From an uncultured Bacilli bacterium (GTDB lineage Bacteria > Bacillota_I > Bacilli_A > RF39 > UBA660), in NCBI GenBank assembly GCA_947623925.1, contig CANQID010000002.1, positions 25,823 to 89,822 of the forward strand: 64,000 nucleotides of DNA, written 5' to 3'. This document shows positions 8,501 to 14,667 of this stretch, one piece after another. The number at the start of each line of letters is the position of its first letter. Position 1 is the stretch's first letter. The position numbers were made by a program, and so were the translations under genes. A model generated the notes under the pieces. It was not told the origin of the DNA. It searched no databases and worked only from the letters and a program-made list of their open reading frames with translations.

Positions 8501-8874
8501 AATTGGGTAGCATAAGTGGTTTTGATATTGTTGGTATAAAAGATGGATTATGGTATAAACCTATAATTTATATCAAAGGTGCAGGAAAATATAGGGTTGA
8601 GATAAACGATATAGACGAAATTGGTAACATTTATAAATTAGAAAATATGTTAAAAAGTTTTGAAAATAAGATAAATACAGTTAAAGAGCAAATAAGTTAT
8701 AACGAGAAACAACTTATCGATATAAAAGAAGAACTTGACAAACCTTTTAACCAACAAGATAGAATTAAAGAATTGCAAAAAGAAAAAGCTAGAATTGATA
8801 GTGAACTTGATTTAGATAAGCAGGAAAATATGACAAATTTAGATGAACTTGATGAAGAAGTGATTGAAAGATAA
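2593..8874 (+). CDS. Giant (2093 aa) N6-adenine DNA methyltransferase + SNF2/DEAH helicase fusion protein, DarB-like (probable anti-restriction protein of the mobile element)
   Basis: MTase motif I '[12 protein letters not shown]' (aa ~623) and motif IV 'GNVPFGNN' (aa ~686). Helicase motif I '[11 protein letters not shown]' (aa ~1300), 'DEAHMFKN' (aa ~1464) and HELICc '[25 protein letters not shown]' (aa ~1780). About 600 aa at the N terminus have no recognised domain, and the C terminus is coiled-coil. Confidence 0.75.
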
Positions 8875-9185
8875 AACTTTTTAGATTTTTTGCAAAAAAA
8901 CTCTTGCAAAATTTACTTTTTTAAGTGATAAATAAACTGAACAAAAAATGCTGTTAAACATATCTAATTCAAACGATATTAAAGGTGATGTGATAAATAC
9001 TAAAAAATAAAACCTCTTAAAACAGCTTTAAATAGTTCTTATGAAAGAAAAAGAAGAATTTAACCAAGATTTACTGAATTATATTACTGAAACAACAAGT
9101 AATGTCAGAAATTTAATAGATAAATTAGAAAAAAAGGAAGATATAAATAAATTAAAATTTTTAATTTTGAATCGATTGGATTGTA
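8872..9185. repeat. Degenerate duplicate (with two internal deletions) of the promoter/5'-gene module at 10879-11530
   Basis: About 110 bp are near-identical (8872-8990 vs 10879-10990). The copy then continues with fragments matching the start of the 11080 ORF and parts of the 11331 ORF. Confidence 0.8.
8904..8935 (+). promoter_or_regulatory. Putative sigma-A-type promoter (TTGCAA -35, about 17-nt spacer, TG-aTAAAT -10 region), copy 1
   Basis: The sequence 'TTGCAAaatttacttttttaagTGATAAAT' sits immediately after the giant gene's stop and is duplicated at 10911-10942. Confidence 0.35.
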
Positions 9186-9193
9186 TTATATGA
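9041..9193 (+). pseudogene. Chimeric 50-aa ORF fusing the N-terminus of the 11080 ORF to fragments of the 11331 ORF (decayed paralog, no Shine-Dalgarno)
   Basis: It translates to MKEKEEFNQDLLNYITE|TTSNVRNLIDKLEKKEDINKLKFLI|LNRLDCII. The RBS present in copy 2 ('gaaaggag') is deleted here. Confidence 0.45.
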
Positions 9194-9430
9194 TGCTAGT
9201 AAGGGACTGTTAAGAAATTAATCATTTAATTTTTGAACAGTTCCTTTGAACATGATTATAATTTTAAGTCTGGATGGTTACTGTTATTTAAAAAAACAAA
9301 AAACCAGAAATTAGTTGAAAAATGATTTTGAAAGTGATATACTCAAATTAGAAAAATCAGAAAGAGTTTCACAACATATAGATGGGAGGGATGACACAAT
9401 AATATAATGTTTTTTTGAAATTGATTTGAA

Positions 9431-9497
9431 GTATGTTGTATGTTGTGTGTTGTATGTTGTATGTTGTGTGTTGTGTGTTGTATGATGTATGCTGTAG
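9431..9497. repeat. GT-rich microsatellite, imperfect (TGTTGTRTG)n, about 7 units
   Basis: Direct reading gives 'gtatgttgtatgttgtgtgttgtatgttgtatgttgtgtgttgtgtgttgtatgatgtatgctgtag', about 80 bp upstream of the 9580 ORF. Confidence 0.85.
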
Positions 9498-9579
9498 ATT
9501 TTTTTAAGGTAAGGAGGTAGTATGAAAATAATTTTTGTTTTCATGACTATGTGTGCCTTGAATAAAGAGAAAGGAATGT

Positions 9580-10263
9580 GTGGTTATTATGAAAAAATTA
9601 AAAGAAAAAATTTTAAAGATTTTATTAGTAGCAGTACTTGCAGTACCATTTTTTTTATCAAACAGTTCAACTGTTTTAGCATATGAGTCAGACACAATTG
9701 ATGAGGCTTTTAAAAATTTACAAAATAAAATAGATTCTAAACTAGATATAGTGTATGATAATGGTGAATATGTTTACTCATATAATTATGATGATATTAA
9801 AGAAATAATATATAATTCTGGATTTGATTTTGAACAATTTAATGCCAAGTATGGAACAAATTATGACAAAACTTCATTTTTAAATGCTGTTATAACTTCA
9901 ATAGATAGTACAAAATTACATTCAAATGTAGCACCAATTGCAAATTATTGTAATCATGATGAAAGTACTCAAGGATGGAATTATTATAGAGAATTTATGT
10001 CAGAATCTGTGTCAAAAAATACCGTATCAGATTTAAGGCAAACAGCAACTAATTTTAGACTTGGTGGAACAGGAGTAGGGTTGTTAATAGGTACTGTTAG
10101 TAAATTATTTGGAGGAGTATTTAAATTGGGTACAGCATATGATGCTTGGTATTTTGATACATTAGCAAATTCAATAGAAGTTAATATGTCTGGTTGTGGT
10201 ACTGTAACTGACATCAATAAATTTACTACTGTATTTACTGTATGGGATCAAAGAGATTTTTAA
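9580..10263 (+). CDS. Secreted protein (227 aa) with signal peptide and a C-terminal Gly-zipper amphipathic region; putative toxin/bacteriocin-like cargo
   Basis: Signal peptide 'KKLKEKILKILLVAVLAVPFFLSNSSTVLA|YE' and a C-terminal 'LGGTGVGLLIGTVSKLFGGVFKLGTAYDAWYF'. The likelier start is the ATG at 9589. Confidence 0.5.
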   Translation: MVIMKKLKEKILKILLVAVLAVPFFLSNSSTVLAYESDTIDEAFKNLQNKIDSKLDIVYDNGEYVYSYNYDDIKEIIYNSGFDFEQFNAKYGTNYDKTSFLNAVITSIDSTKLHSNVAPIANYCNHDESTQGWNYYREFMSESVSKNTVSDLRQTATNFRLGGTGVGLLIGTVSKLFGGVFKLGTAYDAWYFDTLANSIEVNMSGCGTVTDINKFTTVFTVWDQRDF

Positions 10264-10280
10264 TAAGGAGGTAGCTATTA

Positions 10281-10538
10281 ATGAAATTGGGAAAAAAAAC
10301 CAGTAAGTATATTTATATAATAATATCTTTGCTAGCTGTTTTCTTACTTTTTTTAGGAATCGGTAAAGTGATTGAACTTAGATTGGCTTCATTACTTATT
10401 GAATTTTTGGTTTGTATTACATTTTTAATTGATTCTATTTTTAAGTTTAAAGAAGGTAAAAAGGCAGAAGCATTAACATTTTTAATTTTTGTTATATTAA
10501 TGGTTTTCTTTACTATTTCAAGTCTCCTAAATTATTAG
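10281..10538 (+). CDS. Small membrane protein (85 aa, 2-3 TM), candidate immunity/partner protein
   Basis: The RBS 'taaggaggtag' precedes it, it is hydrophobic throughout, and it lies 18 bp after the secreted-protein gene. Confidence 0.5.
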   Translation: MKLGKKTSKYIYIIISLLAVFLLFLGIGKVIELRLASLLIEFLVCITFLIDSIFKFKEGKKAEALTFLIFVILMVFFTISSLLNY

Positions 10539-10603
10539 TTTTTTGATTTTTTAAGTATATAATGAAAGGGTCTGTTTGGAAATTAAATTATTGATTTTAC
10601 GGC

Positions 10604-10697
10604 TCTTCGAAATCTAGTGGGGGAGTAAAAAATAGTTCTCATCGAAATTTGATGAGGACTTTTTTTCATATTATCTTCGAGTTTTAGTGAGGAGTAA
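10604..10697. repeat. Three imperfect about 24-bp direct repeats (iteron-like), consensus tcYtcgaRwtYtaGtGrGGAGta
   Basis: R1 is 10604-10628 'ctcttcgaaatctagtgggggagtaa', R2 is 10637-10660 'tctcatcgaaatttgatgaggact' and R3 is 10673-10697 'atcttcgagttttagtgaggagtaa'. Confidence 0.6.
10635..10668 (+). terminator. Rho-independent terminator after the secreted/membrane gene pair
   Basis: The stem 'ctcatc' + loop 'gaaattt' + 'gatgag' is followed by 'gactttttttc'. Confidence 0.5.
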
Positions 10698-10910
10698 CAA
10701 AAGGTTGTTATTCACTTTTTTATATGAGATAATTATTATATAATTTATATTACTAGAAAAGGCTCAAAAGTTTAAATGAATTATTATGATGAATTGGCTC
10801 ATCTAACATTAGCTGTTAGAATCATTTATGACTATTATAAATTTTAATTACGAAATTTGGTATAAAGAAAATCCAAATAAAACATTTTTAGATTTTTTGC
10901 AAAAAAACTC

Positions 10911-10942
10911 TTGCAAAATTTACTTTTTTAAGTGATAAATAA
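10911..10942 (+). promoter_or_regulatory. Putative sigma-A-type promoter, copy 2 (drives the 11080/11331 genes)
   Basis: Same sequence as 8904-8935, placed about 140 bp upstream of RBS 'gaaaggag' and the ATG at 11080. Confidence 0.35.
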
Positions 10943-11079
10943 ACTGAACAAAAAATGCTGTTAAACATATCTAATTCAAACGATATTAAAAGTGATGTGG
11001 AGGGTTTGGTAACTATAAGTACTAAAAAATAAAACCTCTTAAAACGGCTTTAATTAGTTCTTATGAAAGGAGTTTATTT

Positions 11080-11316
11080 ATGGAAGAAAAAGAAGAATTT
11101 AACCAAGATTTACTGAACTATATTACTGAAAATTTTAAGGCAACAATGGAAAGTGATTTTGAGGAAAAAGTTTATGGCTTTCCATATACAAGATGTCTTA
11201 ACACATTTTTTCAAAGGTTAAAGAAAGAATATAATATTGATTTTAATGCTGATTTTATAAGTGATAAATTATTAGATAAAGTTGTTGAAGAATTTTTATT
11301 AAATATAACTAAATAG
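11080..11316 (+). CDS. Hypothetical protein (78 aa)
   Basis: Good RBS 'gaaaggag'. Its N-terminus 'MEEKEEFNQDLLNYITE' is duplicated in the chimeric copy at 9041. Confidence 0.5.
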   Translation: MEEKEEFNQDLLNYITENFKATMESDFEEKVYGFPYTRCLNTFFQRLKKEYNIDFNADFISDKLLDKVVEEFLLNITK

Positions 11317-11330
11317 AGGAGGAATGATTT

Positions 11331-11834
11331 ATGTATATTACTGAAACGACAAGTAATGTTAGAAATTTAATAGAGGAATTGGAAAAAAAGGAAGATATAA
11401 ATAAATTAAAATTTTTAATTTATATATTTGGATTATTAAATAATGACCAAATAAATACTGATAATGAATTAAATCCTAGTTTAGTAGAAAAGGATGATAT
11501 GAAAATTTTTAATTTTGAATCAATTGGATTATCAAATAATATATGCACAATATTATTACAATATTTTTCTATGTTATATAATAATATGACAAATACAAAA
11601 GATACATATGAGGACAATGGAAATATTATTGGTGTTAATTATGATAAGGAAGATAAAGAAATTATTTCAAAATTTGAAAAACTTAAATTTAATGAAAAAT
11701 TAGATTTATTTAGTGAAATTATAATTAGATACGATAATGAAACTTACTTTGATAAAAAAATTACAAATCCCTTATTTAATTTAAGGTTGAGTGGATTTGA
11801 AATGGCAAAAATAATTAGAGATTTAAAAATATAG
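11331..11834 (+). CDS. Hypothetical protein (167 aa)
   Basis: RBS 'agaggagg'. The N-terminus 'MYITETTSNVRNLIEELEKKEDINKLKFLI' is partly duplicated at 9090-9170. No motif was recognised. Confidence 0.5.
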   Translation: MYITETTSNVRNLIEELEKKEDINKLKFLIYIFGLLNNDQINTDNELNPSLVEKDDMKIFNFESIGLSNNICTILLQYFSMLYNNMTNTKDTYEDNGNIIGVNYDKEDKEIISKFEKLKFNEKLDLFSEIIIRYDNETYFDKKITNPLFNLRLSGFEMAKIIRDLKI

Positions 11835-12201: not shown

Positions 12202-12218
12202 AAGTGGGAGGAATAACG

Positions 12219-13946
12219 ATGGTACTGAATTTGTATTCAATAAGAAATATTTTATCACAAGGAAAAAAATTAATAGATTTACCACTTCGCGTAACATTTT
12301 ATGCTCGTGTATCAACAGACCATGAAGAACAATTAAATTCATTAGAAAATCAGGTCATGTATTTTGAAAATTATATTAAATCACAAGCAAATTGGATATT
12401 TGTAAATGGCTATGTAGATGAGGGTATAAGTGGAACAAGTGTTAATAAAAGAGATAATTTTCTTAAGATGATAAATGACGCTAAAAAAGGAATGTTTAAT
12501 TTGATATTAACAAAAGAAATATCGAGATTTTCAAGAAATACTATTGATAGTATTCAATATACACAAGAATTATTATCTTATGGTGTTGGAATATATTTCT
12601 TAAATGACAATATTAATACATTTGATTCAGATTCAGAACTTCGTTTAACTATTATGTCATCTATTGCACAAGATGAAATAAGAAAATTATCAGAAAGAAT
12701 TAGATTTGGTTATAAAAGAAGTATTGAAAAAGGAGTAGTCCCTGGAAGTGATAATTTTTATGGTTATAAAAAAAATAAAGGTAAGTTGGAAATAGTAGAA
12801 GAAGAAGCAAAACTAATAAGACTTATTTTTAATGAATATAGTAAAGGAAAAATGGGTACTTCAAAACTAGGGCGTTATTTATATGATGAATATAATATTG
12901 TAAGTAAAACGAATAAAGCATTAGCAGGGGCTGTTATAACAAAAATAATTAGAAATCCAAAATATAAAGGTTATTTTTGCGCTCATAAGGAAACTACAAT
13001 TGACTATCATTCAAAAAAAAGAATTAGATTTAAACCAGAGGAATGGATATTATATAAAGACAATGAGTCATGTCCTCCAATAGTGTCAGAAGAACTATGG
13101 GAAAAATGTAATAAAATATTAGAAGAAAATTCTATAAAACATAAAACGAATACTAGAACTGATATGAGGTATGCTTTATCTGGGAAAATAAAATGTTATC
13201 ATGATGGGGCATCTTTCATAAGAGGTAGCTATAAAAATAGGAGAACAGGAGTAGAGAGCAAGTATTGGGGATGTTCTAATTACAGAAAATATGGAAAATC
13301 CAAAATTAATGGGTGTAGAACTCCTATTATATATTACAATGAATTATTAGATATATTTAAAAAAATAATAAATAATATATTAGATCAAGAAAATGGCGTA
13401 GTCGAAGAAATTTATGGATTAATTGATGAAATAGAACAGAAAACAGACTACACAAAAGAAATAAATGAGGTAGATAGAAAGATAATAGAAATAAAAAAAG
13501 CAAAATCAGAATTAATTAATATGAGGGCAAGAAAAGAAATAGAGAAAGATGAATATAACGAATCGAAAGAAAAATATAATAGTGAATTATTAACTCTTGA
13601 AGAGAGGAAACAAAAATATTTAGCAACAAGTTTAAAAGTAGACTACAAATCCAACATTAATGATTTTATCAAAAAAGTTCGTGATATAGTTTTAGAAGAT
13701 GACGAATCCGTTTTTAGTATATTTGGTTCTGTAATTGATAAAATATTAGTAGAAAAATTAGAATCAAAAGAAGATAATATTCATAAGATAATGTTACATT
13801 TTAAATTGAACATACTTGGCTACGATAAAAGTAGCTTAAATTTAAATGATTTTTTACTGCTTTTTAGTAACCACGACAGACGCAGTTGTGGCGCTTGCAG
13901 AAAAGATAGCGGGAACGGAAGAAATGTTTGTAGATATGATGAATAA
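12219..13946 (+). CDS. Large serine recombinase (resolvase/invertase catalytic domain + recombinase domain + zinc ribbon + coiled coil)
   Basis: The active-site context 'VTFYARVSTDHEEQLNSLENQ' is present. The protein is about 575 aa with a Cys cluster ('CPP...C', 'CYHDG...GCSNYRKYGKSKINGCR'). RBS is GGGAGG and ATG is at 12219. The 3' end overlaps the dac junction. Confidence 0.85.
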   Translation: MVLNLYSIRNILSQGKKLIDLPLRVTFYARVSTDHEEQLNSLENQVMYFENYIKSQANWIFVNGYVDEGISGTSVNKRDNFLKMINDAKKGMFNLILTKEISRFSRNTIDSIQYTQELLSYGVGIYFLNDNINTFDSDSELRLTIMSSIAQDEIRKLSERIRFGYKRSIEKGVVPGSDNFYGYKKNKGKLEIVEEEAKLIRLIFNEYSKGKMGTSKLGRYLYDEYNIVSKTNKALAGAVITKIIRNPKYKGYFCAHKETTIDYHSKKRIRFKPEEWILYKDNESCPPIVSEELWEKCNKILEENSIKHKTNTRTDMRYALSGKIKCYHDGASFIRGSYKNRRTGVESKYWGCSNYRKYGKSKINGCRTPIIYYNELLDIFKKIINNILDQENGVVEEIYGLIDEIEQKTDYTKEINEVDRKIIEIKKAKSELINMRARKEIEKDEYNESKEKYNSELLTLEERKQKYLATSLKVDYKSNINDFIKKVRDIVLEDDESVFSIFGSVIDKILVEKLESKEDNIHKIMLHFKLNILGYDKSSLNLNDFLLLFSNHDRRSCGACRKDSGNGRNVCRYDE

Positions 13947-14667
13947 AAGAGCAAAAGAATTAGGATTAACAGAAACTAACTTTAAAAATGTACATGGATT
14001 ACATGATACAAATCATTATTCAAGCGCATATGATATGTCAATAATAGCTAAAGAACTTGTAAAGCATGAAAAGCTATTTGAATACACGTCAATTTATGAA
14101 GACTACTTAAGACAAAACACAGATCGTAAAATATGGCTAGTTAATACAAATAAACTAGTAAGATTTTATAATGGTGTTGATGGATTAAAAACAGGATATA
14201 CAAAAGAAGCAGGATATTGTTTAACTGCAACAGCAAAAAAAGACAATATGCGTGTAATAGCTGTAGTAATGGGAGAACCCGATAGTCAAACAAGAAATAA
14301 AGAAGTAACGGAAATGCTAGATTATGCTTTTGCTCAATATGAAGTAGAAGAAATATTGTCAAAAAATAGTATTTTAGATAAAGTTAAAGTTTCAAAAGGA
14401 AAAGATGAATATGTAGAAATAGTACCAACACAACAAATAACATTTTTAAATAAAAAAACAGAACCTAAAAAAACAGCTACTTTTGATTTAAATATAAATA
14501 AACTATCTGCTCCTTTAAAAGTTGGAGATAAAGTAGGAACTATTAAAGTAAAAGAAGACGGAATAGAAAGAATAATAGATGTAACAGTTAAAAATGATAT
14601 AGAAAAAGCAAATATATTTGAAGTATATATAAGAAACTTAAAAGATATGCTTGTAGGCAATATGTAG
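13878..14667 (+). pseudogene. Interrupted D-alanyl-D-alanine carboxypeptidase gene (dacF/dacB/PBP5 type): C-terminal about 260 codons only
   Basis: The sequence 'DAVVALAEKIAGTEEMFVDMMNKRAKELGLTETNFKNVHGL...GLKTGYT...' aligns to PBP5-type enzymes from the SGN motif onward. The SGN motif is replaced by element-derived 'TTT', and the SxxK active-site serine region is absent. Confidence 0.65.

Follow-up and report, generated by a model that had tools for sequence, protein, structure and literature searches.

An unannotated family of predicted Sec-exported proteins with small membrane partners: a candidate toxin-immunity pair on mobile elements of Bacillota

Introduction

Among described toxin systems, the closest in kind to the locus reported here are the large, heat-labile, non-lytic class III bacteriocins of streptococci: dysgalacticin, which has an essential disulfide, and streptococcin A-M57 (SA-M57). 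Our locus is a pair of adjacent genes, for a 224-amino-acid (aa) preprotein and an 85-aa membrane protein, carried as cargo by an integrative and conjugative element (ICE) in 64,000 nucleotides (nt) of DNA from an uncultured Bacilli bacterium (assembly GCA_947623925.1, contig CANQID010000002.1, positions 25,823 to 89,822; this whole stretch is called the window, and coordinates refer to it unless a locus such as L004 is named). Dysgalacticin is made as a 220-aa preprotein with a Sec leader of ~28 aa, has a mature mass of ~21 kDa and is encoded on a mobile replicon; the adjoining gene, dysI, encodes a membrane-associated immunity factor, and the bacteriocin disturbs membrane potential and permeability via a membrane receptor (PMC8308785). 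In size, Sec route and gene arrangement, dysgalacticin and SA-M57 with DysI match the present pair. The likeness to dysgalacticin and SA-M57 (AY907345, AY648561) is one of description, with no sequence relationship shown. The dysgalacticin-type traits present here are a predicted Sec peptide, a mature protein of ~193 aa and an adjacent gene for a small membrane protein, the candidate immunity factor.

Pore-forming colicins (A, E1, Ia and N) consist of a soluble toxin domain with a hydrophobic hairpin near the C-terminus, and are accompanied by an immunity protein of three to four transmembrane (TM) helices whose action takes place inside the membrane. Colicins and the present pair are alike in having a globular domain with a hydrophobic hairpin near the C-terminus, a small membrane partner and small mobilizable carriers that hold little else as cargo, but the all-alpha, ten-helix bundle that encloses the colicin hairpin is not seen in the present protein. 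The pair parallels dysgalacticin/DysI and, by analogy, colicin-type pore formers, and is not a demonstrable member of either group.

A Gly-rich small-xxx-small segment is also shared with the glycine-zipper toxins TelE/TipE and TspA/TsaI (type VIIb secretion system), Tse4 and Ssp6 (type VI secretion system) and CdzC/D. The segment of TelE is proposed to destabilise membranes, and its small cognate antagonist, TipE, is the product of the adjacent gene and belongs to the DUF5085 family (PMC10434224). Unlike TipE, the partner in the window has no Pfam match of any kind, and unlike the glycine-zipper toxins the present family would be exported by Sec, lacks LXG and WXG domains and linked type VII, type VI or type I secretion genes, and has its segment as an internal loop of a folded domain instead of a C-terminal tail. 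SdpC/SdpI and EF1097 (EntV) offer another comparison: these toxins are exported as pre-proteins of ~170-200 aa, contain a disulfide and have an active part that is hydrophobic, and for SdpC there is a membrane immunity protein as well. The present family differs in that it matches no NCBIfam or Pfam model, and in that conservation and the structure model indicate one folded domain and not a propeptide. The family is thus unannotated and without a fold match in the libraries searched, while the kind of system is familiar.

We put at about even odds (a probability of roughly 0.5) that the pair represents a new family of protein toxins that leave the cell by Sec and target membranes without enzymatic action, each with its own immunity protein in the membrane; that the protein is toxic, what it targets and that the partner protects are what we infer. 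The reading draws on Sec export, an extracellular disulfide, an exposed fusion-peptide-like loop and a linked, fast-diverging membrane partner, as well as on the minimal cargo of mobilizable elements, a diverged duplication of the pair and retention of the small gene after loss of the large one. A fuller account, held slightly more tentatively, is that these are disulfide-stapled toxins of an unrecognised Sec-exported family, with a fusion-peptide-like Gly/Ala-rich loop and a fast-diverging immunity partner, travelling as a minimal two-gene unit on ICEs, integrative mobilizable elements (IMEs) and plasmids; in that account the module would have spread through Clostridia, Erysipelotrichales and Enterococcus, including clinical E. 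faecalis plasmids. If the toxin reading is right, it would add a new structural family to the very few characterised large non-lytic protein bacteriocins of Gram-positive bacteria, and the part that targets membranes, a Gly/Ala-rich loop inside the protein and borne by a stapled helical arm, would differ from that of known pore formers. A minimal toxin-immunity cargo would then help ICEs, IMEs and plasmids to persist in gut Bacillota, and the homologue on E. faecalis plasmids provides a genetically tractable system. Should the toxin reading be wrong, there is still a conserved, unannotated module of secreted protein and membrane partner that deserves a name.

The large protein and its family

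An earlier reading of the window, made from the DNA letters and their open reading frames (ORFs) and here called the sequence-only reading, had described two adjacent ORFs at 9580-10538, the first of 227 aa. Both ORFs are present on the plus strand, the large gene at 9589..10263 and the small gene at 10281..10538, but the large protein has 224 residues: its start is ATG 9589 and not GTG 9580, because ATG 9589 aligns with the invariant M1 of all close homologues. The corresponding start in locus L009, whose large protein is 81% identical, is preceded by a good ribosome-binding site (RBS). Residues 1-31 (MKKLKEKILKILLVAVLAVPFFLSNSSTVLA, followed by YE; 9589..9681, plus strand) form a predicted Sec signal peptide, which the sequence-only reading had already recognised. 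By heuristic criteria it has five K/R among the first 10 residues, a hydrophobic core and a VLA/YE cleavage site, and similar N-termini are found in 57 of the 65 aligned family members. Cleavage after Ala31 would leave a mature protein of ~193 aa. The protein has neither a lipobox (there is no Cys in the signal peptide) nor a C-terminal sorting signal.

A profile search of 1.84 billion cluster representatives returned 91 family members (36 at E <= 1e-30), nearly all of 205-260 aa with a single matched stretch, that is, a single domain. A word-indexed search of 5.8 billion proteins gave six relatives, among which one has the query's own sequence, and its alignment-based counterpart added little. 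Where databases name these proteins, the name is always 'hypothetical protein'. Carriers are uncultured Clostridia, Erysipelothrix, other Erysipelotrichaceae, Breznakia and Enterococcus, the last including E. faecalis plasmids; tblastn with two family members against 72,556 plasmids recovered only Enterococcus homologues and no streptococcal ones. Viral contigs, a phage collection and JGI metagenome contigs each yielded nothing or one locus.

The statement that the protein belongs to no nameable family held throughout. Pfam and NCBIfam gave no above-chance match for the window protein or the 65 aligned members, PHROGs and PADLOC none for the window proteins, a profile search against PDB sequences none, and the confident AlphaFold2 model of the large protein no significant fold match in the libraries searched. 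The large protein founds an unannotated family of predicted exported proteins of ~205-260 aa. SdpC-type, lactococcin 972-type and other named bacteriocin models of Pfam and NCBIfam likewise matched none of the 65 members consistently, and the best scores were at chance level (JUQZ_fam_ocin in 3/65 at E = 0.012; BacteriocIIc_cy in one member at E = 0.02). JUQZ-1 is a secreted Brevibacillus protein of 116 aa and ~12 kDa (PMC11747845). We judged the JUQZ_fam_ocin match to be due to chance and rejected that identity.

The AlphaFold2 model, built on the 65-sequence alignment, has a predicted local distance difference test score (pLDDT) of 87 and a predicted template modelling score (pTM) of 0.76. 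A helix at residues 2-22 corresponds to the signal peptide and is followed by an alpha/beta domain (helices 37-49, 67-75, 81-88 and 94-107; strands 53-57, 60-64, 125-128 and 132-137). The C-terminal part runs from a long helix (139-157) through a Gly-rich stretch (158-181) and another helix (182-198) to a closing beta-hairpin (205-220). Between the two helices lies the Gly-rich hydrophobic loop, residues 158-186 (LGGTGVGLLIGTVSKLFGGVFKLGTAYDA; 10060..10146, plus strand), which is a low-confidence region of an otherwise confident model. The sequence-only reading had taken this segment for a glycine zipper ending the protein, and in this it was mistaken as to position: the 38 residues that follow the loop (WYFDTLANSIEVNMSGCGTVTDINKFTTVFTVWDQ) are the most conserved part of the family. 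A strict GxxxGxxxG motif does exist in the window protein (G160-G164-G168) but in only 8/65 members, and a relaxed small-xxx-small-xxx-small pattern occurs in 49/65. Across the family the loop has a median length of 29 aa, with 18% Gly, 42% Gly, Ala and Ser together, one charged residue and often a central Pro.

Two cysteines flank the arm that carries the loop. Cys121 (codon 9949..9951, plus strand) and Cys203 (codon 10195..10197, plus strand), the latter within a conserved CGTVxDxNKFT motif, are both present in 46 members and both absent in 18, with a single mismatch (Fisher p = 4e-15, without phylogenetic correction), and the replacements are varied (Y/T, A/V, Y/A, S/H and Y/G). This co-variation suggests a Cys121-Cys203 disulfide at the base of a helix-loop-helix arm, which would place both ends of the loop outside the cytoplasm. 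On the Hessa scale the best 19-mer of the loop scores +5.2 kcal/mol in the window protein and +4.2 kcal/mol at the family median, and none of the 65 is at or below 0; given these positive sums, the loop should pass the Sec translocon and not anchor the protein. Together, the co-variation of the flanking Cys residues and the positive Hessa sums ruled out the loop as a single-span stop-transfer TM segment.

The composition of the loop admits a different reading, which we think improbable, in which the large protein is a precursor: a protease would free the Gly/Ala-rich segment as a small membrane-active peptide, and the partner would serve in immunity or signalling. SDP is released from SdpC and EntV from EF1097 in this manner. 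The loop does resemble hydrophobic class II and circular bacteriocins in composition, as the one weak BacteriocIIc_cy match illustrates, and the enterococcal loci have, after the pair, a gene for a secreted peptidase of the C47 staphopain-like type that carries a GW domain. However, the loop is the least conserved part and the globular regions flanking it are the most conserved, the co-varying cysteines stand on either side of the arm, the model shows one confidently predicted domain, none of the NCBIfam or Pfam toxin models, SdpC-type or other, matched, and the peptidase is limited to the enterococcal subfamily.

Residues W130, G204 and Q221 are invariant in the family, and Y61, N131 and N210 nearly so. 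No set of catalytic-type residues is conserved in the aligned family, so that the action of a toxin of this kind would be non-enzymatic. The same W, N, Q and Y residues, together with the missing catalytic set, could speak for a non-toxic secreted binding protein (an adhesin, or a carbohydrate or wall binder) to which the small ORF is unrelated or merely co-transcribed, and enterococcal loci do lie among genes for WxL surface proteins and a GW-domain protein. Against this stand the lack of any LysM, SH3b, GW, CWB2, WxL or LPXTG feature in the 65 members by Pfam, and the adjacent membrane partner in 11 of 15 lineages which, along with the co-mobility of the two genes, argues against chance adjacency. 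No homology to structural or cell-wall-binding proteins, which the sequence-only reading had named as contrary evidence, was found by sequence or by fold, and we regard the binding-protein explanation as unlikely.

The membrane partner and the operon

The stop codon of the large gene (10261-10263, plus strand) is followed at once by the RBS of the small gene, AAGGAGG (10265-10271, plus strand), which lies 9 nt ahead of the ATG at 10281; the gap between the genes is 17 nt, one less than had been stated. Downstream, a hairpin of 12 pairs followed by a T-run (10634-10660, plus strand) resembles an intrinsic terminator, a type of site of which 3 were found against 0.3 expected in shuffles. The large and small genes form one operon ending at this terminator. 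Comparison with the L009 module, which is 82% identical, shows selection on both genes: the ratio of nonsynonymous to synonymous substitution rates (dN/dS) comes to 0.25 in the large gene and to 0.67 in the small gene, and dS is ~0.4 in both. Both genes are therefore real and were inherited together.

The small gene encodes a basic protein for which a structure model (pLDDT 75) predicts three helices, at residues 3-27, 33-57 and 61-83. It had been described as an all-TM protein; three helices are indeed predicted, but only the two outer ones are TM-grade on the Hessa scale (segments 10-28 and 65-83). Partner proteins have segments at or below 0 on this scale, unlike the loops of the large family. 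No Pfam family matches the 85-aa protein, and a search of 5.8 billion proteins returned only its own sequence.

The pairing recurs in relatives, as the sequence-only reading had asked to be checked. In 11 of 15 intact lineages (window/L009, L004, L011, L013, L014, L015/16, L023, L024, L025, L028 and L030) a small ORF of 53-157 aa with 2-4 TM helices lies directly 3' of the large gene on the same strand, with a spacing that ranges from overlap to ~105 nt and is mostly below 35 nt. The partners diverge much faster than the large proteins: those of the window and L009 are 55% identical where the large proteins are 81% identical, and those of L013 and L014, two diverged pairs in one Erysipelothrix metagenome-assembled genome (MAG), are 26% identical (E = 6e-9) where the large paralogues are 56% identical. 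Apart from these two comparisons, partners of different lineages have no detectable similarity to one another. Recurrent linkage and fast partner divergence fit the toxin-immunity arrangement first proposed for the window, but the zipper-tail argument made for it was inaccurate and four lineages have no downstream partner.

Host element and other carrier loci

The element carrying the pair is an ICE and the two-gene pair is its cargo, as had been proposed. Genes for a VirB4/TraC-like ATPase, an M23 peptidase and a single-stranded DNA-binding protein lie upstream of the window on the same contig, and those for a TraG/VirD4 coupling protein and a 2093-aa SNF2 helicase lie within it, upstream of the cassette. 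Downstream of the cassette, a large serine recombinase gene (12204-13946) runs straight into a 5'-truncated D-Ala-D-Ala carboxypeptidase gene (region 12204-14667), whose product lacks the first ~100 residues and matches the Peptidase_S11 profile at positions 102-237 of 239 only. This junction marks the right end of the ICE, which appears to be inserted inside a gene of the dac/PBP5 (penicillin-binding protein 5) type. This is reminiscent of intervening elements that interrupt sporulation genes. In a related ICE (L008), the recombinase adjoins split ORFs of Peptidase_U57 (YabG).

Within the ICE, the cassette is a discrete insertion of ~1.7 kb, bracketed by direct repeats of ~300 bp that are the scar of its entry. 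The right repeat (10880..11530, plus strand) is the intact copy and comprises an intergenic region and the starts of a 78-aa and a 167-aa gene. The left repeat (8873..9182, plus strand; repeat families D1, D2, D4, D5 and D11, 94-98% identical) is a degraded, internally deleted copy of 10880-11131, 11334-11421 and 11499-11530, so that the 50-aa ORF at 9041-9193 is a chimera left over from the 78-aa and 167-aa genes. The window resembles L009 only at 9365-9460 and 9584-10542; the similarity stops at the module edges, and the two genes with their leader therefore move as one unit.

Another carrier, L004 9521-15074, is a segment of 5.4 kb flanked by two tRNA-Gly genes (anticodons ccc and tcc). It contains genes for a Mob_Pre relaxase and a serine recombinase (two ORFs), an unannotated 96-aa ORF and the pair, which is the only cargo besides that ORF. 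The segment looks like a minimal IME. The family also occurs in an ICE that has genes for a sortase and an adhesin, at an integrase-proximal site, on E. faecalis plasmids and at plain chromosomal sites.

Two loci document decay. Compared with L013 4700-5760 of a closely related Erysipelothrix contig, L018 4680-5310 has undergone a 424-bp deletion and a 1-bp frameshift, by which most of the large gene is gone, and the small gene is intact except for three point changes. The copy in Breznakia (L017 9960-10690) has two in-frame stops, at the invariant Trp of GWNY and at a signal-peptide Cys, and no recognisable partner ORF downstream; it is probably a pseudogene.

The location of the pair in an accessory region beside recombinase or integrase genes of ICEs, the IME and a prophage-like element also suits an alternative that we consider unlikely, though less so than the precursor or binding-protein explanations. 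The exported protein could be kept on the outer face of the producer's membrane by its loop, the partner or both, as a non-toxic envelope module of the mobile element that alters the cell surface and might serve in entry or superinfection exclusion, in blocking phage DNA injection or in some other benefit to the host. Exclusion and defence genes are often located in such accessory regions. The loop does not have the length to span a membrane, as would be expected of peripheral or re-entrant anchoring, linkage to the membrane partner is tight, and the transporter and regulator typical of bacteriocin loci are lacking. However, no PADLOC defence model or PHROG matched and no homologue was found in phage or viral collections, while several loci are chromosomal without nearby mobile-element genes (L013/L014, L023, L025 and L028). 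Additionally, rapid partner divergence, the presence of two diverged pairs in a single genome and a deletion that removes the large gene but spares the small one are more typical of toxin-immunity systems.

A possible mode of action and its difficulties

Under the toxin-immunity reading, the 224-aa product would be exported by Sec and cleaved after Ala31. Outside the cell, the Cys121-Cys203 disulfide suggested by co-variation would staple the base of the helix-loop-helix arm to the alpha/beta core, so as to present at the tip of the arm a loop of ~29 residues that is rich in Gly and Ala, nearly uncharged and like a fusion peptide in composition. Such a loop would be too weakly hydrophobic to become trapped in the producer's membrane during export. 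At the target cell it may insert into the membrane or wedge into a membrane-embedded receptor, leading to depolarisation or permeabilisation, and in the producer's membrane the three-helix partner may neutralise the inserted loop or shield the receptor.

Several points weigh against this reading. Toxicity and protection are putative throughout the family. With ~29 residues and, in many members, a Pro near the middle, the loop does not have the length to cross a bilayer twice, which makes a pore or insertion mechanism speculative, and the loop of the window protein contains two Lys, atypical of the family. In the window the pair stands without a regulator, transporter or processing gene of its own. 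A carbohydrate-binding site is another role that the invariant W, N, Q and Y residues would fit. Four of the 15 intact lineages (L010, L008/L012, L022 and L026) lack a downstream partner; in L010 a DUF3846 gene follows the large gene, and three of the four have a multi-TM ORF upstream or in divergent orientation instead. L008/L012 also lack a signal peptide, as do members P0004 and P0092 as called. Finally, the loss of the large gene in L018 is a single recent deletion that could be neutral.

Leader region and neighbouring genes

Upstream of the large gene, a region at 9365..9496 (plus strand), of which 9365-9460 is conserved with the L009 module, is probably promoter or leader sequence. Just 5' of the gene, at 9431-9496 on the plus strand, it contains a heptanucleotide tandem repeat, (GTATGTT)x9.4, of which a shorter version is found upstream of the L009 module and which may have a regulatory role or be a variable element. 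The frequency of promoter-like hexamers, seen at 9233-9262, 9315-9343 and 9415-9444, does not exceed chance expectation, the fold of the leader is unremarkable (z = -2.6), and Rfam has no match anywhere in the window. In another frame, a strong RBS (AAGGAGG) precedes the ATG at 9522 of a 54-aa ORF (9507-9686) that runs across the start of the large gene. This ORF lacks conservation in L009 and may be due to chance or act as a leader.

In Enterococcus (L024 6993-9461 and L028 7780-10029), the pair is followed by genes for a conserved secreted protein of ~218 aa and for the secreted C47 staphopain-like cysteine peptidase, on which the E. faecalis copy (L024) has a GW cell-wall-binding domain. 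The four genes are clustered in this way on the E. faecalis plasmid LR962583 and on the chromosome of Enterococcus sp. DIV0212c. On E. faecalis plasmids resembling LR962583, the large gene is of the WP_202572044 type and its partner has 120 aa. The 595-aa protein encoded beside the E. faecalis homologue was considered as BacL1 of Bac41 and turned out to be this peptidase with its GW domain.

At L025 4828-5375 (minus strand), on the strand opposite to the adjoining family gene, a 103-aa protein that contains a long hydrophobic stretch rich in Gly and Ala is followed by a 71-aa ORF with two TM helices, and an ABC transporter is encoded nearby. These two ORFs may be a second bacteriocin-like pair. 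In Erysipelotrichaceae (L015 6376-7199 and L016 8086-8909), genes for an AgrB-like 176-aa protein with five TM helices and a small PadR-like regulator, both identified by eye from motifs, lie ~0.8-1.1 kb upstream of the family gene, and these neighbours may hint at quorum-sensing control.

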